Shown here: piece by piece, positions 1-19,476 of the stretch
Layout of the letters: every line of letters begins with the position of its first letter
How positions within the stretch are numbered: the first letter of the stretch is position 1
From: Chloroflexota bacterium
Lineage (GTDB): Bacteria > Chloroflexota > Anaerolineae > Caldilineales > Caldilineaceae
Direction: 5' to 3'
DNA: 19,758 nucleotides
Assembly (NCBI GenBank): GCA_039029935.1
Contig: JBCCFC010000074.1
Coordinates: forward strand, 1-19,758
Notes under the pieces: generated by a model
Told to the model about the DNA's origin: nothing
The model's database searches: none
What the model saw: only the letters and a program-made list of their open reading frames with translations
Made by a program: the position numbers and the translations under genes

Positions 1-360
1 ACAGAAGAGTCTGGTGTTGCTACTGGACGCTATCAGCAAGAACTCGCTGATGTCCAGCAGAAATTGTCTGACGCAGAACAGCAACTTCGGACCCAAACAG
101 AAGAGTCTGGTCTCGCCACCGAGCGTTATCAGCAAGAACTCGCCGAGGTCCAGCAGAAATTGGCTGACGCAGAACAGCAACTTCGGACCCAAACAGAAGA
201 GTCTGGTCTCGCCACCGGACGCTATCAGCAAGAACTCGCCGATGTCCAGCAGAAATTGGCTGATGCAGAACAACAACTTCGGACCCAAACAGAAAAGTCT
301 GATGTCGCCACCGGACGCTATCAACAAGAACTCGCCACTGTTCAACAGCAGTTAGCCAAC
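1..360 (+). repeat. 96-nt in-frame tandem repeat, about 3.7 copies, about 90% identical, encoding 32-aa coiled-coil units.
   Basis: gcagaacagcaacttcggacccaaacagaagagtctggtctcgccacc... recurs at 73, 169 and 265. Confidence 0.85.
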
Positions 361-789
361 GCAGAGCAACAACTTGCGAACGCCAAGCAAGAATTATCCG
401 TGACAAGTGAACAACTCTCTGCTGCACAAACGGAGAACACAGCTTTACAGAGTCAACCTGCGTCTTCATCAGAAGATTCAGACTGTTCGGCACAGGTTGC
501 AGCGGCTGTTGCACCGCTCAATGAACAGATTGCTAATCTGCAAAGACAGTTAAAGGATTTGACCGCTGCTCGATTTGAACGCGATAACCTCAAAAAGATC
601 AAAGGTATCGGTAATGCCTATGAACGACGACTCAATCAGGCAGGTATCTACACATTTAATCAACTTGCCGCTGTCACAACCGAAAAAATTGAGGAGATTG
701 TTGCAAACGAAGATTGGCAAGCCGTTGATATCCAATCGTGGATTGAACAAGCGGCTGAACTTACCGAGCAACCTAAACAATCTTCATAA
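1..789 (+). CDS. 5'-truncated coiled-coil tandem-repeat protein with a C-terminal DUF4332-like helix-hairpin-helix domain. The reading frame is open from nt 1, and the first in-window Met at 64 is not the real start.
   Basis: Frame 1 is open from position 1 and stops at TAA 787-789. Residues read (T)EESGVATGRYQQELADVQQKLSDAEQQLRTQ... with a 32-aa period (96 nt) repeated about 3.7 times, with heptad-like coiled-coil character. The C-terminus ...LKKIKGIGNAYERRLNQAGIYTFNQLAAVTTEKIEEI... matches the HhH motif typical of DUF4332 proteins. Confidence 0.75.
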   Translation, partial: TEESGVATGRYQQELADVQQKLSDAEQQLRTQTEESGLATERYQQELAEVQQKLADAEQQLRTQTEESGLATGRYQQELADVQQKLADAEQQLRTQTEKSDVATGRYQQELATVQQQLANAEQQLANAKQELSVTSEQLSAAQTENTALQSQPASSSEDSDCSAQVAAAVAPLNEQIANLQRQLKDLTAARFERDNLKKIKGIGNAYERRLNQAGIYTFNQLAAVTTEKIEEIVANEDWQAVDIQSWIEQAAELTEQPKQSS

Positions 790-882: not shown

Positions 883-3800
883 ATGGAGGATGCCTTTATG
901 GCAGATAAAGGGCGCACACCTAGAGATATATGGCGTTTTGACCTCGCCAAGTTTATTGTTTTGCTTCTCGCAGTTCTTGTACTTATTTCCCTGTTAATTT
1001 CCAGAGGTTGCTCGAACCGTTTGGAGGAATTAGCACTCATTGAAGGTGTAGATGAAAGCATTCTGGAGACAGAAGTCAAAGAATTGTCTTCGACACCCAT
1101 TCCTGTCTTTACGTCAGAAGCCGAATCTGCAACAAATGAAACCACTGTGCTAGAACTTAATTCGCCTGCGGATGGGGAAGAGCTAGATGCTGGTGCGATC
1201 GTCTTTGCTGGGACCAGTGCGCCCAATTCCATTGTACGTATCTTTGTAGATGATTTGATGACCGGGGTTGTTGCCACCGATAATACTGGCACATGGACTT
1301 ATGATGCAATGCTCATGGAGCTAGGTCAACACTCAGTTTGGGTTGAGTCCGTTGACGCCAAAGGAAATGTCGCTGCGCAATCTGAACCCGTTTCCATCTC
1401 TGTGATTGCACCACCTGTGACTGAGGATGCTCCATCAGTTGCGACAGCATCTGTAGAAGAGGATGCAGTCGAAGAGGATGCAGTCGAAGAGGATGCAGTC
1501 GAAGAGGATGCAGCAGGTGACGCCGCCACTGATGATGCCACTGCTGCGCCTGCGGCTGATATTGCACCCAATGTGGCTGATGAAGAGAACGTCGAAGCGG
1601 ATACATCTTCTGATGACAGTACAACTGATGACAGTACAACTGATGACAGTACAACTGATGACAGTACAACTGATGACAGTACAACTGATGACAGTACAAC
1701 TGATGACAGTGCAACTGATGACAGTGCAACCGACCCATCTATGATCGGGGGGGACGGCGAGGCTGATGAAACGGCTGCTACAGATGACGTTGCTGATTCA
1801 TCGACTGAGAACGCTGTCAATGATGAAACAGCGGGCGATGAAACAACAGAATCTGACACAGGTGTAGACCCCGCTGGTGATGTTGTGACCGAAACCTCTA
1901 CAACAGAAAGCGATGGCAATTCCGATGAAACGACAGTGACCGATGACACGACTGATGCTAATACATCTACAGATGATGGAACAACAACGTCTGATACAGG
2001 GATGACATCTGCTGCTAATACCATAGACGAAGAATCAGCCAATAAGGATGCTGCTGATACCGACATGGCTGTCGAGGATAGTACTGTCGAGGATAGTACT
2101 GTCGAGGATGGCACTATTGAGGATGGTACAGAGTCTAATACAGATGAAGAATCAGTCGATGAGGCCACAGAGTCTAACACAGATGAAGAATCCACGGTAG
2201 ATGGTGACACGGCTGATACGAGCAGTGACACCGCTGACGTAACAGAAGATGAGGAGGTTGTCGAAACTGAACCTTCTAGCGAAGAAGCTGCAGTTGCGGA
2301 CGAAGAGGCCGCACAAGAATCGACTGAAGCGACTGAGACCGAGACAGAATCAGAGGCAGATACAACATCTGCTGTTGACACTGTTTCTGAGGAGACGACT
2401 ATAGAGCCAACGGTCACACCGATTTTGCCTTCATTTGATATGTCAGGGTTCCTCGACCGTATTGGTTTGGGCGCGTCTACATTAGAAGGGACGGGAGAAC
2501 CCGGCTCTGAAATCGAAGTCGTCATTGATGGCGAGGTTGTCGATACAGTCACTATCGGTGAAGATGGGACATGGTCCTATGATGCCGAACTTAACGAGCC
2601 CGGCCAACATTCAATCCGACTCAACTTGGTTAACTCGATTGGTGAAATCATCCAGTCATCGCTACCATCCATCTTTAGCGTACCCACTGCAACACCTGAG
2701 CCGACAGCTACGCCCGAGCCGACTGCAACGTCAACCGAAACCGCGACAGCCACAGCTACACCAGAACCAACCAGCACACCAACAGCGACTGCCACTGATA
2801 CGGCAACGCCAACAACAGAACCGACTGCAACGCCCATTGCACCTGTGATTGACGTAAGTGTTCTGGAGCAAGTGTTTGCCATTGGTGAAGAAATCAGTCT
2901 GAATGGTTCCGGTCAGCCAAACGATACACTGGAATTGTTGGTTAATGGTAATGGCGTTGACTCAACCACGGTTGACAGCGATGGCTCATGGGCAATGAAT
3001 ACAACGTTTGATGAGGGTGGAAACTATGGCCTGAGCCTCAATATAGTGGATGAGGACGGCAATGTTACTGATACGACGCTGCCAACATATATCTCTGTGC
3101 CAACATCCACGCCTGTGCCAACTGCCACATCCACTGAAACACCGACCGCTACACCAACCGAGACAGCAACAGCAACAGCCACATCAACGGCAACTGCTAC
3201 GTCAACGGCAACTGCTACGTCAACGGCAACTGCTACGTCAACGGCAACTGCCACGCCAACCGAGACAGCAACTGCTACGCCAACCGAGACAGCAACTGCT
3301 ACGCCGACCGAGACACCGACTGCTACACCTATTGCACTTGAGATTGATGTCGATGTGGTTAGCCCGAACATCATCTCCTTAGCGGGTGCAGGGGCACCGG
3401 GTACCCAGATTGGTTTACGCCTCAACGGGCTGGACATGGGCGATGTTGTTGAGGTGGGTGAAGACGGTCAATGGTCGCTGACCAAGACATTGGATATACC
3501 CGGCAGATATACATTGCGCTTGGATGCGTTGGATGTGGATGGTAACGAACTAGAGGGGATCACGGTTATCCCATCGGTGGTTGATGTCGCTACGGTCACA
3601 CCTGTGCCGACAACAACGCCGACAGCCACGTCAACACATACACCAGAACCAACTGTAACCAATACGGCGACACCAACGCCTGTAACTTATGCCTTTGATA
3701 TGACTATCCTAGAAAGCGAGGTCATTTCGGCGACGGGAACTGGCACACCTGGAATGATGCTCGGTCTATCCTTAAACGGGCTTGAGCCGGCAGTGACAAC

Positions 3801-6800
3801 TGAGGTAGATGAAAATGGTGAATGGGTACTCGAAACATTGGTGACAACACCGGGTAAATATCAAGTTCGAGTAGTTGAACTTGACGACGCAGGCGAAACT
3901 ACGTCTGATACCGTGTTGCCGTTACGCATGAGTATGGCGACGCTGACAATGACACCAACGCCCACATCAACCAATACACCTACACCAACTGATACTGCTA
4001 CTCCAACTGATACCCCAACTAGCACGGCTACCGCTAAACCGACGGCAACTGCGACTGAAACGGCTACGCCAACCGAAACACCCACACCAACTGCTCCACC
4101 AACGGCAACACCCATACCACCGATGATTGATGCCAGCGCGCTTGACACCGAATTTGTGATCGGTGAAGAAGTCAGTCTGAGTGGTTCAGGCCAGCCAGAC
4201 ACAATGCTGGAATTGCTGGTGAATGGCGACGGTGTTGACTCTGCAACCGTAGACACTGATGGCGCGTGGGCAATGAGTGCAACCTTTGAAGAGGGTGGCA
4301 ACTATGGGTTGAGTCTGAACACAGTGGATGAGGATGGCAATGTCACCGACACAACACTGCCAACCTACATTTCTGTACCCACAGCCACACCTGTGCCGAC
4401 GGCTACAGCGACCGAGACTGCTACACCAGAACCAACCAGCACAGCGACCGATACTGCTACGCCTGAGCCTACCAGTACATCCACACCAACGGCGACTGAG
4501 ACGGCTATGCCAACAGCAACAGCTACGCCTGAACCAACAGCCACTGCAACAGCCACGCCAATTATACCAATGATCGACCTGAGTCTTTTGGAGGATGCTG
4601 ATGGTGGCGCAGTCGCGATAGACGAGATTGAGATTGGTGATGTGATCAACTTAAGTGGTTCTGGTGAACCAGCAACTGAGGTTGAACTGCTGGTAGATGG
4701 CATTGGTGTTGACAGCACAACGGTCAATACTGAGGGTCTATGGGCGTTGAGTACGCGCTTTGATGAGGGTGGCATCTATGCTCTGAGTTTGAACACGCTC
4801 GATGGAGAGGGTGAGGTCACAAACACAACGCTGCCAACCTTCATCACGATTCCCACACCTGTCCCCACCGCAACCAGTACGCCAACCGAGACACCGACAC
4901 CTGCACCATCACCGACACCTGTTGTTATCACAGTTACAGAGGTGGTTACACAATCTGTCACAGAGATTATTACGCAGGTGATTACTGTGACAGTTGATTC
5001 CGGCATTGGTGCTACCGGGCTTGAGGATACGGATACCACGTCCAATGTGGATGAATCAAATGATACCACAGTTGTAGATGTAGCTGATGAAGGCATATCT
5101 GCTCAGGGAGAACCAACGCCAGAGCCGCTGTCATTCCTGATTAGTGCATCCAGTCACGAATCTATTTTGTTGGCTGGTTCTGGTACACCAGGCAATCAGG
5201 TTGAACTCTTGGTAGATGGCGAGATCAGTGGTCAGACAGTGACTGTCGATGAAAATGGTCAATGGGAACTTGACGCCATCATTGATGAATCCGGCACACA
5301 CACGCTGACGCTCAATGCCTTGGATGCGGATGGCAATCTGTTGCCTGAGCGTGTTGTCCTGTTGACAATGGACATCATCACGTCAGATGCCCCAGAAGAC
5401 ACATCTCAAGAAGATACATCGCCGGAAGAATCTTCGACGGACGATAGCACTTCTTGGGCGGACTCTGTGACACAGCCTGTGCTTGCTACGCTTGATTTGC
5501 GTATCAAAACATTCAACGACGATGGTACTTGGTTCTATGCCGATAGCACTTTTACACCGGACAGCGCGCAGACGCAGTTTGCCGAGCCATCCCACGGTAT
5601 TCAGTTGATTGCGCACTCGCAGATGCCAGACGCAAACGAGTTTCTGCAATCGGCTACGAACTATGAACTTGATATTGCTGTGCTTGAGAATCAGGTGATC
5701 ACACTAACAGGCGAGGGCTTCCCTGGCACAACGGTGGGCTTGTCCATTAATAGCATGGGACCAGTGGAAACAGCCGATGTTGATGCCGATGGCAAGTGGG
5801 TATTGAGTACACTCTTTAAGGATGCCGGCTATTATCGTATTGGTGTCCATGAGTTGGATGCAGATGATGGCTCATTGCTCGACACAGTACCACCGCTCAA
5901 TGTCGGCATGGCAACGGTGACACCTGTGCCAACCCCAGCCAACACTGGTGCTATGATGCCGGAGCCTCTGACCTTTAATGTCGATATACGCGACAGCGAT
6001 GTTGTACAACTCAAAGGTTCTGGAGAATCAGGTACGTTGATTAACTTGTTTATTGATGGTGTTCACGAAGGCGATGTTGCGGTCGTCAATGAAAATGGGG
6101 CTTGGGAACTTGATCGTGAGCTAAATGAGCCAGGCACATATGCGCTGACGCTACGCGCGACCGATGCCGAAGGTGGTCCATTGCCCGCCTTGATTATCCC
6201 TTCCTCTATCATTATCGCAACACCCACCCCAAGTGTTTCTCAACCCACACCATCACCGACCGTGCCGCCAACCTCAACGCCAGTACCAACCGCGACACAA
6301 ATTGCGCCCGTCATCGATATGTCATCACTGCCAACCGAGATCACCTTGGGGGATGTTGTCAATGTAAGCGGTTCTGGCGAGCCAGAGACAACGTTGGAAC
6401 TGCTTGTGGATGGCGCAGGTGTCGATAGCACGGATGTAGACCCGAATGGCTCTTGGGACATGAGTACCACCTTTGACGAGGGCGGAACCTATGCCTTGAG
6501 TTTAAATACATTGGATGAGGATGGTCAGGTAACAGATACAACGTTGCCAACCTTTATCTCGATCCCGACACCCACACCACTGCCATTGCCAACCCCAGAA
6601 ATTATTACAGAGACCGTGACACAAGTCATCACCGTCACTGCGCAGCCGATTACTGTCACCGTGATTGCTCCGACCTTGACGCCAACACCAGAACCGTTGA
6701 TCTTTAATGTCGATGCACTGGGCAACGAAACTGTTTTCTTGATGGGTGAAGGCGAACCTGGCACACAGGTACAGCTTTTGGTCAATGGCCTAGACTTGGG

Positions 6801-9800
6801 CGATGTAACTACTGTAGACAACAGCGGCACATGGTCACTCAATCGCACGCTGACGATTCCGGGCAACTATGCTCTCAGTTTAATGTCGATGGATGAAGAT
6901 GGTAACACGCTCTCAGCACCCATCATACCATCGTCGATTATTGTTGCGACAGCCACACCGATGGCAACGGACACGCCAAGTCCAACACCAACGGATACAC
7001 CGATGCCGACCTCCACCGATATACCAGCACCAACGGACACACCAGTACCAACGGACACACCAGTACCAACGGATACACCTGTACCGACAGATACACCAGT
7101 ACCAACAGATACACCTGTGCCAACGGCCACATCGACGGACACGCCTATACCGCCTGTGCTAAATCTGTCTGGCTTCTTGGCGGGCTTTGGCGCAAGCGAT
7201 CAACAAGATAATAGTGCGCAGGCAAGAAGCAATGATAGCGCGGATGATGCATCTGCTATGTTGGATGGAACAGGTGCGCCTGGTTCACAGATTGAGATTG
7301 TGGTTGATGGTGAGGTTGTAGATACTGTAACTGTCGGCGACGATGGTAACTGGTCCTATAATTTTGCTGAGAATGACACCTTTGGTGATGCAGACAAATA
7401 TATTCTGAGTTTGAATCTGTTGGATGAAAATGGCGATGTCGTGCAGTCCACCGAGCCATCTATTGTGCTGCTCCCCACTGCCGCACCGACAGCGACGCCA
7501 GTGCCAACAGATACACCGTTGCCAACAGAGACACTAGCCCCGACGGAAACGCCAGTGCCGACGGATACACCAACACCGGAAGCAACCGAAACCAAGACGC
7601 CACGCCCAACACCGCCAACCTTTGAACTCTTTGGCTTGTCCAATGATTTGACAGTGGGGCAAATTCGGCTGAAAGGGTCGGGCATGCCCAATACACAGGT
7701 GGAGGTTCTGGTTGATGGCGAACCTGTTGATATTGTTGATGTAGATGAAGAGGGTGTATGGCAACTGCCTGTCACCTTTACAGAGCCAGGGCGTCATGCA
7801 ATCTCAGTCAACATGTTGGATGAAGATGGCGATGTGGTCAATGTCTCACCACCAGTGATGATTTCGATTCCAACGCCACAGCCAACACGCACGGCAACAT
7901 CGACCTATACCCCAGAGCCAGTGGAAGCAGAGCCAACGTCAACAAGCATTGCCACGGCGACACCACGCCGTCCAATGCTGGATATCTATAAATTACCTGT
8001 GCGCATGGATGTCGGTGAGACAACGTTGCTGGGAACAGGCGTTGCTGGCTCCACACTAGAAATTGTGATTGACGATGAGGTAGTTGATGAGGTCATGGTT
8101 GCCAAGGATGGCACATGGTCCTATGATGTGACCTTTGATGAGCCAGGCAAGTATGCAGTTGTGTTGCGTGTCAAAGAGGATGATAACGAATACAGTTATG
8201 TATCGTTGCCATCTATTCTGAGCATTCCAACGGCCACACCGACTGAAACCAGCGTGCCAACGGATACACCTGAGCCTACAGCGACACCTGTGCCGACGGA
8301 TACACCTGTGCCCACAGACACCCCTATGCCAGCCAGTACGGCCACGGCCACATCTGAACCAACCGCAACTGCAACAATGGTTCCATTGAGCTTTAACCTG
8401 TCCTTATCGGCAGCAGATCGGACTGATAGCACCGTTGATGGGCAGACGCCATTGTCGGGTGAAGGTCAACCAGGGTCAACCGTTCAGATATTGGTGGATG
8501 GTGAGGTGGTTGATGAAGTGGTTGTGGAGGAGGATGGCTCATGGCATTATGACATAAATTTGGATGAACCGGGCAAGTATGCCGTGAGCCTGAATATGGT
8601 CGATGAGGAGGACAATGTCCTCTTTACATCACTGCCTTCAATCGTGAGCATTCCAACGGCTACCCCAACTGAGACAGCGACCGCCACAGAAACGGCCACA
8701 CCTGTGCCGACAGCAACGTCTACGCCTACCAATACGAATACGGCGACAGCGACTGCGACACCAGAGCCGACTGCGACACCAGAACCGACATCCACGGCAA
8801 CGGATACAGCAACCGCCATTCCACTGAGCTTTGACTTGTCTGTACCAACATCAAGGACGAGTCGTACAGAAGGCCAGACTCAGCTAATGGGTGCAGGTGA
8901 GCCAGGAGCGATTGTTCAGATACTGGTCGATGGTGTTGTTGTTGATGAGGTCATCGTTGGCGATGATGGCGCATGGGCTTATGATGTCAATTTAGATGGG
9001 CCAGGCAAATATGCTGTGAACTTGAATGTTGTGGATGAGGCGGGCAATGTACTCTTCACATCTCTGCCTTCAATTGTCAGCATTCCAACGGCTACACCAA
9101 CGGATACACCCGTGCCAACGGATACACTCGTGCCAACGGCCACGCCAGAGCCAACGGCCACGCCAGAGCCAACCAACACAGCAACATCTGCACCGCCGAC
9201 CTCGACCAGCATCCCAACGGCCACAACACGTCCACCAGTGTTGGATATCTATAAATTACCCATTCTCATGTCTGTGGGTGAGACAACTCTGGAGGGAACG
9301 GGTGTTGCTGACACCACGCTACAAATTCTGATTGATAGCGAGGTTGCAGATGAAGTCATGGTTGCGAAGAATGGTACGTGGTCCTATGAGGCCACCTTTG
9401 ACGAACCAGGTAAATATGCTGTGGGTATACGCGTCAAAGAGGATGATGGTACATTGGGGTATACATCTCTGCCAATCATTCTCAATATTCCGACAGCCAC
9501 GCCAACGGCAACGCCTGAGCCAACGGCAACGCCTGAGCCAACGGATACACTTGTGCCCACTGATACACCTGTACCCACAGCCACGGCAACACCGACCAGC
9601 ACGGCAACACCTGAACCAACCGTTATTCCGTTGAGCTTTGTGTTCCCATCGTTTGGCCTTTTGAGTGCAGATGCAGATAGTGATGTAGGTAATGCAGATG
9701 CAGCAGGCGACAGTGCAACACAATTATCCGGTCAAGGCGAGCCAGGGTCAACCGTACAAGTGTTGATTGATGGTGTTGTGGTTGATGATGTGACGGTGGA

Positions 9801-12800
9801 TGAAGAAGGCAATTGGGCATATAACATCAATTTGGATGGACCAGGCAAGTATGCAATCAGCCTGAATGTTGTGGATGAAGAAGGCAATACGGTATTCACA
9901 TCCTTACCAGAAGTTGTCAATATCCCGACCGCAACTGCTGAACCGACCGCTACGGCCACAGCGACCGTTGAACCGACAACGACAGCAACTGCGACAGCAA
10001 CTGCCACAGCGACAGCAACTGCCACTGCCACAGCAACTGACACAGCCACAGCGACTCAGGAGCCAACAGCAACCTCTCGACCATCCATATTCAATCTATT
10101 ACCATTACATACGGAAGTCAAGGATGGTGTACTGGCGATTCGAGGTAGTGCCAAACCAGATACATCGGTACGCATCTTGGTCCGAGGGCAAGAAAGAGCC
10201 AATGTAACTGTGGATGATAATGGTCGCTGGGATGCGGCTGTTGAGCTAGACGAGCCAGGTGCTTACACCGTTGTCGTCCAGTCGATGGATGTAGACGGTC
10301 AAAGAGTGTTGTCATCTGCTGTCTTGCGCGCACGTATTGTCGCACCAACTGCGACAGCAACAGCAACTGCGACAGCAACTGCGACAGCAACCGCAACTGC
10401 GACAGCAACCGCAACTGCGACAGCAACCGCAACTGCGACAGCAACCGCAACTGCGACAGCAACCGCAACTGCGACAGCAACCGCAACTGCGACAGATACA
10501 GCGACACCTGAACCTACAGCAACGCCGGAGCCAACTGCCACACCAGAGCCAACTGCAACGGCAACGGATACTGTGACGCCGGAGCCGACTGCAACGGCAA
10601 CGGATACTGTGACACCAGAGCCGACTGCTACTGCAACAGCGACGGGACTGCCACCTGTCTTTAACCTTTCGCCATTTGATGCGGAGGTTAAAAATGGCGT
10701 TTTGGATATGAGCGGTCTCGGTGAGCCGGATACATTCGTCCGCATTTTGGTCAATGGACAGACCGCCGCTCAGTCAACTGTGGATGAAGATGGTGGCTGG
10801 TCCGCATCTATCGAACTAGAAAAATCAGGGTCATATAATATTGTGGTGCAGTCGATTGGTGAGGATGGCGAAACGGTAGAGTCGTCGGCTATCCTACGCG
10901 CACGTGTCGTTCCACCAACGGCAACACCAACAGATACACCTGTACCAACGGCAACAGCGACGGCGACTGATACAGCGACACCTGTACCAACAGCGACGGC
11001 GACTGATACAGCAACACCTGTACCAACAGCGACGGCGACTGATACAGCAACACCGGAACCAACGGCAACCAATACACCTGTTGCACCATCGATTGACTCG
11101 TCATCACTACAAGACAGCATTGATGCTAGCTATGCTGGCGAGAATGGTGCTGGCAGTAATGGAGATAGTGGTGATGCAAATTTGATGCTTGCTGGCACTG
11201 GTGAGCCAGGGTATCAGCTTGAGGTTGTGGTTGACGGTGTTGTGGTTGATACAGTCACAGTCGATGACAATGGCAAATGGGTATATAATTTGGCCGATGC
11301 GGATGTGATTGATGAAGCGGGTAAGTATGCGATTAGCGTGAACTTATTGAATGCCGATGGCGAGGTTGAAATGACCACACTGCCGTCAATGATCAGCATT
11401 CCAACGGCAACGCCAACGGATACACCAGTGCCCACAGATACACCTGTGCCGACAGACACACCTGTGCCGACAGACACACCAACACCAACAGACACACCAA
11501 CACCAACGGCGACAGCGACGGATACACCAACACCGCCACCACCTGTGTTTAATCTGTTGCCATTTGACGCAGAGGTCAACAATGGCATGTTGGCGGTGAG
11601 TGGTAGCGCAATGCCAGAATCGTCAGTACGGATTTTGGTGAATGGTCAAGTGGCGGCTGATGTCACAGTTGATGAAAATGGCAACTGGTCTACAAGCATT
11701 GAGTTGGATAAACCAGGGTCCTATAACGTTGTTGTCCAATCAATTGGGGCTGATGGTGTCTCTGTTGTCTCATCGGCTATCTTGGGCGCACGGGTCCCTG
11801 CGCCAACAGCGACACCGACTGACACGGCGACAGCGACACCTGTGCCAACCCATACACCAACGGCAACACCGACGGATACGGTGACAGCGACACCTGTACC
11901 AACCCATACACCAACACCGACAGAGACAGCAACGCCAACAGCAACACTGTTGCCTGTAATCTTTGATTTGTCTGTCTTTGATGCGGAGGTACTTGGCGAT
12001 AATATAAAGGTAAGCGGTATTTCTGATCCGACAACGGTTGTGCGTATTCTGGTCAATGGTCGATTGATTGATACAACCGAGGTCAGTGAAGATGGTGGCT
12101 GGTCAATGACGATTCCGTTTGATGGACCGGGCAGCTACAATATTGTTGTACAGTCTGTGGACTCGCTGGGTGAAGTCATCGGTTCGTCAGCCATTGTGCG
12201 AGCAATTGTGCCAACCAAGACGCCAACACCAACGGCTACATATACACCAACGCCGACGGATACACCAACAGCAACTGCAACAGATACGCCTGAGCCAACC
12301 AGTACACCAACGCCAACGGATACACCAACACCAACGGCAACATTGCTGCCTGCCGTGTTCAACCTGTATGCCTTTGATGCGGAGGTAAAGAGCGACCAAC
12401 TGCGCTTAAGTGGGACTGCGGACCCAACGACAATGATCCATGTTGTGGTGAACGGTACAGTTGCTGCCATTGCGACACCAAATGAAAATGGTCGCTGGTC
12501 AACCGTTATCCAGTTTGAGCGTTCTGGCCGTTATAATATCATTATTCGGTCTGTAGCAGAGGATGGTGAGGTGGTTGAATCGTCTGCGATTACACGTGCG
12601 GACGTGGCTATACCAACACCGACGCCAACACCAACCGAGACGCCAACACCGACCGCCACAGAAACACCCGTGCCAACGGCGACATTTACACCAACGCTGA
12701 CGCCAACGTTCACGCCACCACCGACAGCGACAGCACAAGCGGATGTCGATGGTTCTGCACAATCTGATGCTGCTCCAGCGGACCAAACACCCTCGACCCG

Positions 12801-17784: not shown

Positions 17785-19476
17785 ATGAGTCAACTCACAA
17801 CAACATTGGGTATCAACAACGTAGACAACTATCAGGCAGATATTGACGCGGCCATAACCGCTGCACAGGACGGCTCTATCGTCTCTCGCATTTGGGACCA
17901 TGACCACACCGTTTGGCGACCCGACCCCACCGAAATTACCAATCGCTTGGGCTGGCTGCATAGCCCTGTCAACATGCGTGAAAACATCGCAGGCATCACA
18001 GCACTGGTCGATGCTGTTAAAAGCGATGGCTATGAGCGTGTTGTCGCACTCGGCATGGGTGGCTCTAGTCTTGCGCCCGAAGTCTTCCAGAAAGTCTATG
18101 GCAAGCCTGCTGGACCTGATAATGACTATCTGGCAGTGACTATTTTTGATAGCACAGACCCTGATATGCTGCGTGATCTAGAGAGTAACATTGAGTTGAG
18201 CAAGACGCTAATCATCGTCGCCACCAAATCAGGTGGAACCGTAGAGACGCTCTCGGGCTTTAAGTATTTCTACAACCGTATAGTTGACACTCTGGGTGCA
18301 GAAAATGCGGGTCAACATTTTGTCGCTATCACCGATCCGGGGAGCCGATTGGAGGACATTGCGCAGAAATTTAACTTCCGTGAAACCTTCCTTAACGACC
18401 CCAACATTGGCGGACGTTATGCAGCCTTATCCTATTATGGCATGGTGGCTGCGGGGTTGGTTGGCGTGGACATGGCGACGCTGTTAGATCGGGCAGCGGT
18501 GATGTCCTGTAATAATGCGAGTCAAGGGGCAGGAAAGGACACTGAGAATCTCGGTACAAAAATTGGTATCATTATGGGTGTACTTGCCAAAGCGGGACGC
18601 GACAAAATCACCTTTATTGCCTCGCCCGCCATTGAATCTTTTGGCGATTGGGTCGAGCAGTTAATCGCTGAAAGTACAGGCAAAGAAGGCAAGGGCATTC
18701 TCCCTGTTGTGGGCGAAGCAGTGGGATCGCCAGATGTCTATAGGGATGACCGACTGTTTGTACATCTTCGTTTGCCAGAAAACAATGCTGATCCCCATGA
18801 TGCTGCCGTGCAGTCCCTTATCGACGCAGGTCAGCCTGTCCTCACCTTGACCCTCACCGACCTCTATGACCTGGGTGGGCAATTCTTCCTCTGGGAGGTG
18901 GCAACCGCTATTGCCAGCCATGTCATCGACATTCAGCCCTTTGACCAGCCCAATGTCGAGTCAGCCAAAGTGCTGGCGCGTCAGATGGTGGCCGAGTATA
19001 TGGAGAAGGGTGAGCTACCAGCAGGTGAAACGGCTCCACTGACCGCCGCGTCGCTGGAGACATTCCTAGCGCAGGCGAAAGCTGGCGACTATATTTCCAT
19101 TCACGCCTATGTCAACCCAACCGCTGAAGCCAACGCAGCCGTTAATGAGCTACGACTGGCACTACGCGATAAGTTAAAATTAGCAAGCACAGTCGGCTAC
19201 GGACCACGCTTCCTGCATTCAACAGGTCAACTGCACAAGGGTGATGGTGGCAACGGGCTATTCATTCAGTTCACCACCGACGCCATTGAGGATGTGGATA
19301 TTCCTGACGAGGCGGGTGAGACGGCATCAACCATGAGCTTTGGGGTATTGAAGAATTCGCAAGCGCTGGGTGATGCACAGGCATTGCTTGGCGAAGGACG
19401 ACGAGTCATCCGTTTTAATCTGGGACAGGATGTTGTGGGTGGTGTTGCTTCTTTGACAGAATCACTTGGTTCATGA
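17785..19476 (+). CDS. pgi: Glucose-6-phosphate isomerase (SIS-type PGI, 563 aa), of the form found as the PGI half of bifunctional transaldolase/PGI enzymes.
   Basis: RBS AAGGAA. RIWDHDHTVWRPDPTEITNRLGWL resembles the Tal-Pgi motif LWAKDASLW...EIANRLGWL. The SIS motif ERVVALGMGGSSLAPEVF is present. The protein is about 560 aa. Confidence 0.75.
   Translation: MSQLTTTLGINNVDNYQADIDAAITAAQDGSIVSRIWDHDHTVWRPDPTEITNRLGWLHSPVNMRENIAGITALVDAVKSDGYERVVALGMGGSSLAPEVFQKVYGKPAGPDNDYLAVTIFDSTDPDMLRDLESNIELSKTLIIVATKSGGTVETLSGFKYFYNRIVDTLGAENAGQHFVAITDPGSRLEDIAQKFNFRETFLNDPNIGGRYAALSYYGMVAAGLVGVDMATLLDRAAVMSCNNASQGAGKDTENLGTKIGIIMGVLAKAGRDKITFIASPAIESFGDWVEQLIAESTGKEGKGILPVVGEAVGSPDVYRDDRLFVHLRLPENNADPHDAAVQSLIDAGQPVLTLTLTDLYDLGGQFFLWEVATAIASHVIDIQPFDQPNVESAKVLARQMVAEYMEKGELPAGETAPLTAASLETFLAQAKAGDYISIHAYVNPTAEANAAVNELRLALRDKLKLASTVGYGPRFLHSTGQLHKGDGGNGLFIQFTTDAIEDVDIPDEAGETASTMSFGVLKNSQALGDAQALLGEGRRVIRFNLGQDVVGGVASLTESLGS

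Follow-up and report, generated by a model that had tools for sequence, protein, structure and literature searches.

How is a protein of 4080 residues, with a hydrophobic export-type helix near its N-terminus and an LPXTG-type tail at its C-terminus, held in the envelope of a Chloroflexota bacterium, and which of its parts would face the outside? This question is raised by the stretch of DNA analysed here (the window, 19,758 nucleotides), which comes from a Chloroflexota, Anaerolineae-like genome, as judged from a neighbouring vault-like gene with 75% identity to a gene in a Chloroflexota MAG and from one family member of the giant protein that is named as an Anaerolineae bacterium protein. 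At the locus of that vault-like relative the giant gene is absent upstream, the locus not being syntenic there. Sequence comparisons indicate that the giant gene is the second gene of an undescribed conserved pair spanning Chloroflexota and Deinococcota, and this pairing bears directly on the topology predicted for its product. The features concerned are as follows:

1..789, + strand: 3' part of the partner gene, frame 1 open from base 1 and cut by the window edge
883..13125, + strand: giant ORF of 4080 aa, uninterrupted from ATG to stop
898, + strand: alternative start ATG of the giant ORF, with GGAGG at 886-890, 8 nt before
913..951, + strand: N-terminal motif RTPRDIWRFDLAK, aa 11-23, predicted cytoplasmic, with the signature [YF]D-x-x-K directly before the helix
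952..1002, + strand: N-terminal hydrophobic helix, aa 24-40, hydropathy maximum 3.06, followed by R-G-C (Cys43)
1141..1407, + strand: Ig-like domain 1, aa 87-175 (E 1.9e-25 with the HMM of the protein's own repeat)
1408..2427, + strand: acidic low-complexity segment, aa 176-515, 340 aa, encoded by 15-nt tandem repeats
2428..12609, + strand: 24 Big_6-type Ig-like domains (2-25), from Pfam, the self-HMM and an AF2 model
12610..13005, + strand: C-terminal spacer, aa 3910-4041, Pro/Thr-rich, then Gly/Asp/Thr-rich
13006..13020, + strand: LPTTG pentapeptide, aa 4042-4046, the sole LPxTG in the protein
13048..13122, + strand: hydrophobic helix, aa 4056-4073, and DRRRRDK, with the stop codon at 13123-13125
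13163..13216, + strand: terminator-like hairpin, 20-bp stem and T run, 38 nt past the stop

No other long ORF accompanies the giant frame in this region, and a chance origin of 4080 open codons is impossible given that about three stops are expected per 64 codons. The true start may be Met6, encoded by the alternative ATG. The net charge of the whole protein is about -549, with aspartate and glutamate making up 34.7% of the acidic segment, which contains one basic residue, and only two segments, those of the N-terminal and C-terminal helices, reach membrane-helix hydrophobicity. A search of the window against Rfam returned no matches.

The body of the protein is a long domain array. An HMM built from the giant protein and iterated against itself recovers exactly 25 copies of a domain of about 87 aa, the first at aa 87-175 and the other 24 within aa 516-3909. 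In Pfam the whole protein matches Big_6 (PF17936; E 3.7e-63, 210.2 bits versus a gathering cutoff of 27.6), the Pfam model reporting just 6 of the 25 copies as separate significant stretches and domain 1 giving weak matches to Big_13 and Big_6. The copies constitute a divergent Big_6 sub-family with a mean column identity of 35%, and a conserved G/W/G core is present in every one of them. At 45% identity or more they fall into four groups, namely {3,6,7,11}, {15,18}, {16,17,19} and {20,21,23,24,25}. An AF2 model of the individual domain is a seven-strand Ig-like sandwich (pLDDT 84.7), for which Foldseek returns Fn3/Ig modules (TM 0.6-0.7), SiiE and Bap; consistent with this, the domain profile retrieves from the PDB the RII domain of MpIBP (4p99, 3.9e-17), the B/C region of Bap (7dm0, 1.3e-13) and SiiE (2yn3, 5e-11). 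Between domains 2-25 lie 23 linkers of 17-103 aa each, 1261 residues in total, with a composition of 36.7% threonine, 18.2% proline and 15.4% alanine, and the array also holds two beta-rich 'VTQxITVTV' stretches and a non-repeat insert (aa 1500-1591), which matches no Pfam family. An exhaustive profile search of a library of 1.84 billion proteins yielded 23,761 proteins matching the repeat, many of them carrying 20-69 copies; judged by these homologies, the repeat is a common "extender" module of giant adhesins. The original prediction, made from the letters of the window, of a single intact 12.2-kb ORF with about 25 Ig-like domains of at least three subfamilies, Pro/Thr/Ala linkers and a hyper-acidic segment of some 330 aa is thus borne out in each of these points, including by the two checks that it had proposed, HMM annotation of the Ig modules and AlphaFold modelling of single domains.

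The partner gene terminates 93 nt before the giant ORF on the same strand, with no promoter-like or terminator-like site in the interval. Word-indexed searches, run with the last 258 aa and with an N-terminal alignment, yielded next to nothing because Pro/Thr low complexity dominated the matches; the orthologues of the giant protein were recovered by the exhaustive profile search. In all four orthologue loci a gene of the HHH_5/DUF4332 type is found upstream, and the partner product aligns with these genes, each of which immediately precedes its orthologue. When metagenomes were scanned with the partner protein, 60 loci showed its membrane-helix signature, and in 45 of them a gene with the [YF]D-x-x-K motif lies directly downstream, at gaps of about -10 to +107 nt. 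Nine loci have no downstream room, which leaves 45 paired among about 51 informative ones; the remaining six include two with obvious relatives missed by the regular expression and two with little downstream room. Among 25 control loci with the HhH domain only, the motif-bearing gene was found in none. TrkH is encoded upstream in three of the orthologue loci, and given this synteny, simple shared ancestry could account for some of the linkage that the closest orthologues display; the pair also recurs in unrelated neighbourhoods, in Oceanithermus (Deinococcota), in Anaerolineales and on a JGI contig.

The downstream products share the [YF]D-x-x-K signature and a membrane helix some 17-22 aa long, and at their C-terminal ends they carry LPXTG, SH3b, LysM or Ig arrays, for the most part modules that bind the wall, with SH3_3, LysM and Fasciclin plus Big_6 among the C-terminal modules recognised. 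Some are of about 200 aa and comprise little beyond the N-terminal module, a linker and SH3b; some neighbours with Ig and fasciclin domains are without a recognised wall-binding module. In the giant protein the signature reads F19-D-L-A-K23, directly followed by the helix (RFDLAK plus helix), and the RTPRDIWRFDLAK-type motif is also present in the family members P0048, P0086, P0134 and P0053 and in others. The helix itself could be either a signal peptide or a signal anchor. R[GS]C follows it in a subset of the family, the cysteine being present in about 18 of 47 members. A lipoprotein reading of R-G-C was considered and not adopted, as neither the arginine at -2 nor the helix length of about 17-22 residues suits a classical lipobox and the cysteine is restricted to that fraction of the family. 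S-R-G before Cys43 does satisfy the -3/-1 rule of signal peptidase I, so that cleavage, and hence a topology with a distal N-terminus, would be feasible.

The partner is encoded in part as coiled-coil repeats, in 96-nt tandem units at 1-375, which are followed by a C-terminal helix-hairpin-helix domain (Pfam HHH_5 at aa 175-212 of its ORF). Its homologues have one membrane helix with the signature GW[LV][IV]EW[IL]IDW...WRR, a cytoplasmic coiled-coil stalk and at least one helix-hairpin-helix domain; by comparison with them the partner of the source genome, the 5' end of whose gene lies beyond the window, would likewise possess this membrane helix. For both proteins the positive-inside rule was the only criterion by which topologies were assigned, and it would place the N-terminus of the partner outside and the HhH domain in the cytoplasm. 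The reverse, ComEA-like orientation with an extracellular HhH domain was rejected, the N-terminus being without charge and RFWRR following the helix. The predicted model of the partner protein comprises a single helix (residues 2-72) and then a compact helical domain (pLDDT 88), and its profile matches, in the PDB, protein-O (8yy9_O, 9.3e-11) and the 41-kDa subunit of complex I (9wqv_a). The family numbers more than 1000 hypothetical proteins described as 'helix-hairpin-helix' or 'flap-endonuclease-like', the labels in the sources being 'predicted flap endonuclease-1-like 5' DNA nuclease' and 'helix-hairpin-helix domain-containing protein'; the nuclease label is likely a mis-annotation.

Conservation of the N-terminal motif across phyla, together with its coupling to a membrane partner, fits better with a module that is retained or specially recognised. 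Hence, we favour, while giving it about an even chance of being right, a tether or loop between membrane and wall, whose N-terminus is retained and associated with the partner, over a fibril with a free distal N-terminus. A giant polyanionic envelope protein would be exported via its N-terminal helix; its body would be formed by 25 Ig-like extender domains on Thr/Pro/Ala linkers; its C-terminus would be fixed in the wall through the LPXTG-type signal; and its N-terminal module, kept or specifically recognised, would pair with the partner at the membrane's cytoplasmic face. On this reading the protein would stand at the upper length limit of a tether family that links membrane and wall, and it might form, in the wall and above it, a flexible loop or brush of great length and negative charge. 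What the sequences show is the integrity and architecture of the gene, the domain family, the conservation of the motif and the gene pairing; sortase processing, N-terminal retention, contact with the partner and the physiological role are inferred from them.

The main competitor of this tether, which we regard as rather unlikely, is that the signal peptide is cleaved and the C-terminus is fixed by sortase, so that a fibril of about 0.3-0.5 micrometre projects Ig-like domain 1 and the acidic segment at its distal end and functions in adhesion or biofilm formation. The conserved, three-part C-terminal signal, the fit of S-R-G to a signal-peptidase site, and the homology of the repeat to extender domains of proven adhesins (MpIBP, SiiE and Bap) are all in keeping with such a fibril, in which the n-region motif would act as a specialised signal for secretion, akin to YSIRK-G/S, and might be read by the partner. 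However, the n-region is conserved between Chloroflexota and Deinococcota, and its motif is tied to the membrane partner across very different passengers, including proteins of about 200 aa. Moreover, of the components that define fibrillar adhesins the repeated stalk is present, with its 25 repeats, but a distinct adhesive or ligand-binding domain at the tip was not found with Pfam, which recognises Ig-type families only, and domain 1 is itself one of the repeat copies. The original prediction had placed the N-terminus at the distal tip, thereby assuming a cleaved signal peptide, and had envisaged an adhesin with differently specialised segments; the partner-linked, cross-phylum motif speaks against the former, and the latter finds no support, the repeat matching the extender and not the binding modules of known giant adhesins and Pfam showing no ligand-binding or tip domain.

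The C-terminal signal is common to both the tether and the fibril. LPTTG is situated 34 residues from the C-terminus, and the helix that follows has a hydropathy of 2.27. In all five close orthologues with a readable C-terminus the LPxTG is kept, as LPTTG, LPETG, LPDTG, LPSTG and LPPTG, each time with a helix and an R-rich tail and with variable flanks, and these same five proteins share the N-terminal motif too. This conservation argues for a functional sorting signal, through which a sortase-type transpeptidase would most likely attach the protein covalently to peptidoglycan. The signal had been described as canonical: its three parts are indeed all there, but it stays below the curated LPXTG models and the spacer between LPxTG and helix is long, at about 10 residues. 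The giant tail gives no match to Pfam Gram_pos_anchor (PF00746) at E<=10 or to NCBIfam LPXTG_anchor (TIGR01167) at E<=1, with the proviso that HMMER filters may conceal very weak matches to these models, and the best orthologue tail reaches 13.2 bits against a cutoff of 15.9. No sortase gene adjoins the giant gene in the four orthologue loci, nor was one detected in the 380 kb of fetched loci by regular expression or by phmmer with a Staphylococcus aureus SrtA query; full-text literature searches combining sortase with Chloroflexi, Chloroflexota or its classes produced nothing on the subject.

These observations leave room for an improbable alternative to sorting, whereby no sortase acts on the protein, the helix and DRRRRDK serve as a second membrane anchor so that it is membrane-held at both ends, and the LPxTG is otherwise used or is recognised by a C-terminal sorting enzyme other than a sortase. 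Apart from the sub-threshold HMM scores and the failure to find a sortase in any fetched locus, it draws on weak similarities of the giant tail to a myxosortase-dependent protein (0.0024) and to GPS-CTERM (0.064), and on matches of orthologue tails to Loki-CTERM and IPTL-CTERM. Yet these other-CTERM matches are far under their cutoffs and cover just the helix and the basic tail, 380 kb is far too small for excluding a sortase, and the four LP-x-TG positions are invariant in five of five orthologues amid variable flanks, which is the pattern expected of a sortase site.

It is hardly credible that the giant ORF arose by misassembly or represents a pseudogene in decay, made of low-complexity repeats: a public short-read assembly of the same organism does break within the gene (a 6.2-kb contig, L001, starts with its last 38 codons and otherwise holds downstream genes only), the exact protein is absent from the public collection by exact look-up, and the orthologue P0053 carries a frameshift close to its 3' end, but the frame runs for 4080 codons without a stop, every repeat copy keeps the G/W/G core, both termini agree with the orthologues, and DNA identity between the copies is just 60-79%, which marks the array as old and not as an assembly duplication or a collapse of reads.

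Returning to the favoured tether, the gene pair invites a wider and fairly doubtful generalisation, namely that it constitutes a trans-envelope module in which a cytoplasmic coiled-coil/HhH protein is coupled through membrane helices (GWLIEWIIDW versus [YF]DxxK) to a protein fixed to peptidoglycan via SH3b, LysM or sortase. The HhH protein would in that case possibly bind DNA or a complex, the extracellular spacer would range from about 100 to about 4000 residues, and the cytoplasm would be physically linked to the wall. The giant version, with its charge of about -549 and probable glycosylation, might on this view also act as a protein polyanion of the wall, in the role that teichoic acids have elsewhere. 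On its own, the giant protein belongs to a very large class, with more than 23,000 carriers of the repeat, many of them larger; the little that it adds is the conservation of LPXTG-type tails in an Anaerolineae-like lineage, a group in which wall anchoring has received hardly any study. The pairing is the new and useful result, as it supplies a testable hypothesis on the connection between membrane and wall in Chloroflexota and Deinococcota and alters the predicted topology of the giant protein, and hence what should be expected from surface proteomics and microscopy.

Among known systems, the Gram-positive LPXTG stalk proteins (SasG/Aap, Bap and Rib/alpha-C) resemble the giant protein in their export helix, Ig-like stalk and LPxTG with helix and basic tail. 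It differs from them in its host, a member of the Chloroflexota, in a tail that falls under the curated thresholds, in the Thr/Pro/Ala linkers between its domains and in being without an A-region or tip domain. To our knowledge, neither the [YF]DxxK-helix module nor the partner gene is a feature of proteins of these types. YSIRK-G/S signal peptides contain a conserved motif in the export segment of staphylococcal and streptococcal LPXTG proteins that is independent of the passenger. A functional analogy may be drawn with [YF]DxxK, both being N-terminal motifs of wall-anchored proteins; their sequences are unrelated, and [YF]DxxK, unlike YSIRK-G/S, has a dedicated partner gene next to it and also occurs on proteins that end in SH3b or LysM.

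The giant RTX/T1SS adhesins (MpIBP of Marinomonas primoryensis, SiiE and LapA/LapF) use the same family of extender domains and are similar in size, acidity and the spacer role of the repeats; many of the top library matches are of this type, with 2-7 kaa and 20-69 repeats. In contrast to them, the giant protein has membrane helices at both ends, lacks any Pfam match to RTX/HemolysinCabind and any T1SS C-terminal signal, ending instead in LPXTG and a helix, and has non-contiguous domains, which makes calcium-rigidified junctions like those of MpIBP unlikely.

For the partner, the DUF4332 literature offered nothing relevant beyond the paper on protein-O of the Dinoroseobacter shibae RC-LH1 complex, a protein in which a flexible linker joins the membrane domain at the N-terminus to a C-terminal domain whose function is called obscure there (PMC12079452). 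A C-terminal domain of the HHH_5/DUF4332 type is carried by protein-O and by extensions of NuoE, L21 and S2 of Alphaproteobacteria, as it is by the partner. What sets the partner apart from protein-O is a different membrane helix (GWLIEWIIDW), a coiled-coil stalk and the near-constant presence of a [YF]DxxK-helix neighbour.

The dominant ORF of the window comprises 4080 codons from ATG to stop, and the features considered here, with the subdivisions of its product, are as follows.

1-789, forward strand: partner gene, open from base 1 and therefore cut by the window edge; coiled-coil repeats and a C-terminal helix-hairpin-helix (HhH) domain
883-13125, forward strand: giant gene
Residues 87-175 of the giant protein: first Ig-like domain copy, delineated by a self-derived HMM
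After copy 1: acidic segment of 340 residues, 34.7% Asp+Glu with a single basic residue
After the acidic segment: 24 further domain copies, with linkers of 17-103 residues that are 70% Thr/Pro/Ala
13396-13653, forward strand: small ORF of 85 aa with the look of an XRE-type helix-turn-helix (…MTQAELAEKSGMNKTYLVRVESGDRNITFKTAERIAGAL…)
13894-15282, forward strand: vault-like protein of 462 aa, a relative of the major vault protein (MVP) of eukaryotes
17785-19476, forward strand: 'PGI' protein of 563 aa, matching NF007080

A second ATG at 898 lies 8 nt behind a perfect GGAGG (886-890), and hence the true start of the giant protein may be Met6. Only two segments reach the hydrophobicity of a membrane helix (aa 24-40 and 4056-4073), and the single LPxTG, LPTTG at aa 4042-4046, is followed by a spacer of about 10 residues, the second helix and DRRRRDK. 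Its net charge is about -549, and its only two cysteines are Cys43, behind the N-terminal helix, and one within the C-terminal helix. Iterating a profile HMM derived from the protein over its own sequence recovered 25 copies of a domain of about 87 aa; in Pfam this domain is Big_6, with a score of 210 bits where the cutoff is 27.6. When one copy was modeled with AlphaFold, the 25 copies serving as alignment, the result was a seven-strand sandwich (pLDDT 84.7) with structural likeness to Fn3/Ig modules of chitinases and CbhA, as well as to SiiE and Bap; by sequence the profile matches Bap, SiiE and the extender region of the ice-binding adhesin from Marinomonas (4p99, 3.9e-17). The original prediction had described a single long ORF with two helices, Ig-like domains in at least three sub-families, an acidic segment, linkers and a tail, all of which are present, the copies falling into the sub-families {3,6,7,11}, {15,18}, {16,17,19} and {20,21,23,24,25}. 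Among 1.84 billion representative proteins 23,761 match the domain profile at E<=0.001, many of them 2-7 kaa long with 20-69 repeats; hence a giant array of such domains is ordinary.

Outside the Ig repeat, two odd linker stretches, VVITVTEVVTQSVTEIITQVITVTV (aa 1347-1372, window 4921-4998) and EIITETVTQVITVTAQPITVTVI (aa 1906-1928, 6598-6666), alternate beta-branched and Thr residues and look strongly beta-prone or amyloid-like. A non-repeat, Trp/Phe/His-rich insert between domains 8 and 9 (aa 1500-1591, window 5380-5655; …LRIKTFNDDGTWFYADSTFTPDSAQTQFAEPSHGIQLIAHSQMPDANEF…) has no Pfam match, the top hit being Mrr_cat at E 0.17, and could be a small unrelated domain.

In all four loci encoding orthologs that share both ends with the giant protein, the ortholog gene is immediately preceded, on its own strand, by one for a protein of 134-178 aa that combines a membrane helix at the N-terminus (FWLGLVAGLIIGWVIEWIIDWRFWRR) with a coiled coil and an HHH_5/DUF4332 domain. 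The partner gene of the window belongs to the same family; within its positions 1-375 a 96-nt unit is repeated in tandem 3.9 times (88% matches), each full unit encoding a 32-aa coiled-coil repeat (AEQQLRTQTEESGLATGRYQQELADVQQKLAD), and the coiled-coil stalk is thus expanded here relative to the 134-178-aa orthologs. No promoter-like or terminator-like site was found between partner and giant genes, and a terminator-like hairpin with a 20-bp stem lies 3' of the latter. The partner is modeled as a single helix (residues 2-72) followed by a small helical domain (pLDDT 88). Its family has more than 1000 members, labeled in their sources 'helix-hairpin-helix domain-containing protein' or 'predicted flap endonuclease-1-like 5' DNA nuclease', and its HhH domain belongs to a type that also forms the C-terminal part of a complex I subunit and of RC-LH1 protein-O; the authors of the protein-O structure called the function of the domain obscure (PMC12079452). 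In one sub-family (loci L060, L062, L066, L067 and L068) partners of 580-654 aa combine the same N-terminal helix with five to seven tandem HhH domains, and neighbor a [FY]DLMK-helix protein of about 590 aa with Big_6/Big_13 and a fasciclin domain.

To survey this pairing a metagenome collection was scanned with the partner protein, together with the ortholog, Oceanithermus and Anaerolineales loci. The membrane-helix signature of the partner was recovered in 60 loci, in 45 of which the product of the next gene opens with [YF]D-x-x-K followed by a membrane helix; this gene usually starts -10 to +107 nt from the partner gene. Nine contigs end too early for the next gene to be judged; the six remaining loci, which lack a match to the regular expression, include two clear relatives, two with little downstream room and two real exceptions, these last being near-identical loci. 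None of 25 control loci matching only the HhH domain has the motif gene. The pair recurs in unrelated gene neighborhoods: an Anaerolineales genome and a 246-kb JGI contig each carry it, as does Oceanithermus (Deinococcota), with 1 nt between its two genes. The two-gene unit is unnamed, and we found no description of it.

The motif-gene products have only their N-terminal module in common. At the C-terminus, those of about 170-260 aa have SH3_3; others have LysM preceded by a few Ig domains, a combination of fasciclin and Ig domains, a long Ig array, or LPXTG. Of these, SH3b, LysM and LPXTG are established means of attachment to peptidoglycan. In the smallest products the conserved parts are the cytoplasmic motif and helix at one end and the wall-binding domain at the other. 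To our knowledge ordinary signal peptides are neither conserved in sequence between phyla nor tied to a dedicated neighboring membrane protein, and for this reason we think that the N-terminal module is retained in the mature protein or specifically recognized. A cysteine directly follows the helix in the giant protein (aa 41-43, window 1003-1011) and in L021, L022, L025-L028, L036, L040, L042, L045, L046, L053, L057, L058, L093, L094 and L106, about 18 of the 47 family members in all; the surrounding sequence is R-[GS]-C or else G-G-C, P-R-C or S-R-C. The position is lipobox-like, but with Arg at -2.

At both ends the giant protein agrees with several of its best matches: RTPRxIxR[FY]DxxK[YF] and a helix (with or without R[GS]C) at the N-terminus, and LPxTG, about 10 residues, a helix and an Arg-rich tail at the C-terminus. 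The orthologs carry LPETG (P0048), LPDTG (P0086), LPSTG (P0134) and LPPTG (P0053). The true end of P0053 (L024 15000-16660, on a 1.14-Mb contig), LPPTG...RLRRRK, lies in another frame: a frameshift near the 3' end, probably an assembly error in the repeats, makes the called product end in an out-of-frame linker, and the LPPTG, helix and RLRRRK tail are called as a separate 109-aa gene. That all five proteins keep L-P-x-T-G while its flanks vary argues strongly for a functional motif. The tail had been called a canonical sorting signal; its LPTTG, helix and basic residues are there, but 'canonical' overstates the case, as it gives no match to TIGR01167 at E<=1 or to PF00746 at E<=10, and the best ortholog tail scores 13.2 bits against the 15.9 cutoff of the curated LPXTG model. 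The giant's tail thus has the descriptive features of an LPXTG signal while falling below the HMM thresholds; it is a conserved, candidate sortase substrate. No sortase gene adjoins the ortholog loci or lies within 380 kb of fetched loci, an amount far too small to be informative, and a literature search on sortases in Chloroflexota gave nothing on the subject. Sortase anchoring may nonetheless reasonably be inferred.

By the positive-inside rule the N-terminus of the partner is predicted to lie outside, with a cytoplasmic coiled coil and HhH domain, and the short N-terminus of the envelope protein inside, so that the conserved charged residues of both, E18/D22/WRR of the partner and the D and K of [YF]DxxK, would meet at the cytoplasmic face. 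The giant protein would be exported through its N-terminal helix and remain associated with the membrane and the partner, with LPTTG as the site where its C-terminus passes to peptidoglycan. Its 25 Ig domains and some 1600 residues of acidic and Thr/Pro/Ala spacer, the spacers probably O-glycosylated, would then make up a polyanionic loop or brush, long and flexible, in and above the wall, not a rod with a free adhesive tip. We regard this mechanism as a whole as evenly poised between right and wrong. The topology proposed earlier, with a cleaved signal peptide and a distal N-terminus, is rather unlikely given the conserved pairing and N-terminal motif, but stays alive in view of the S-R-G before Cys43, which would be acceptable to a signal peptidase. 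A double membrane anchor by the two helices, without sortase processing, appears improbable beside the LPxTG kept in every ortholog. That the giant gene is an artefact or pseudogene is highly improbable: an exact look-up in a public protein collection did not find the protein, and the gene is interrupted by a break in a short-read assembly of this organism, but the domain copies are only 60-79% identical at the DNA level and the array is therefore not an assembly artefact. The giant gene is real; its product is a largely ordinary member of the giant Ig-repeat envelope proteins.

Downstream, the 85-aa ORF sits in an AT-rich 768-bp gap 3' of the giant gene, with a terminator-like hairpin (13689-13719) after it. 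The 462-aa protein is, judged by sequence, a bacterial vault-repeat/shoulder protein: it matches Pfam MVP_shoulder (28.1 bits, cutoff 25), Vault_3/4 more weakly, and MVP chains in the PDB (4hl8, 4.8e-11) over aa 62-425. It is 75% identical to a protein in a Chloroflexota MAG, and its other relatives are mostly from Anaerolineae, Thermoflexales and Ardenticatenales; genomes of Chloroflexota, Oscillatoria (Cyanobacteria) and Cloacimonadota encode relatives with 44-75% identity. The neighboring genes place the window in Chloroflexota, and the recorded source of one family member is an Anaerolineae bacterium. The 563-aa 'PGI', whose gene adjoins glucokinase and AlkZ-like DNA glycosylase genes, matches only the isomerase half of NF007080 (bifunctional transaldolase/phosphoglucose isomerase; profile positions 386-782 of 949) at 3.9e-179, below the model cutoff.

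Among known systems, giant RTX adhesins share the extender domain with the giant protein, a Big_6 member, which is itself not an RTX/T1SS adhesin. It also falls outside the definition of a fibrillar adhesin, the architecture named in the original prediction, as an adhesive domain is absent. In function the protein resembles the LPXTG-anchored repeat-stalk proteins of Gram-positive bacteria. What is added here is that its gene is conserved as a pair with that of a membrane-anchored coiled-coil/HhH protein and that the N-terminal motif is shared; both findings alter the topology that is likely for the giant protein and delimit an envelope module of Chloroflexota and Deinococcota that can be tested.
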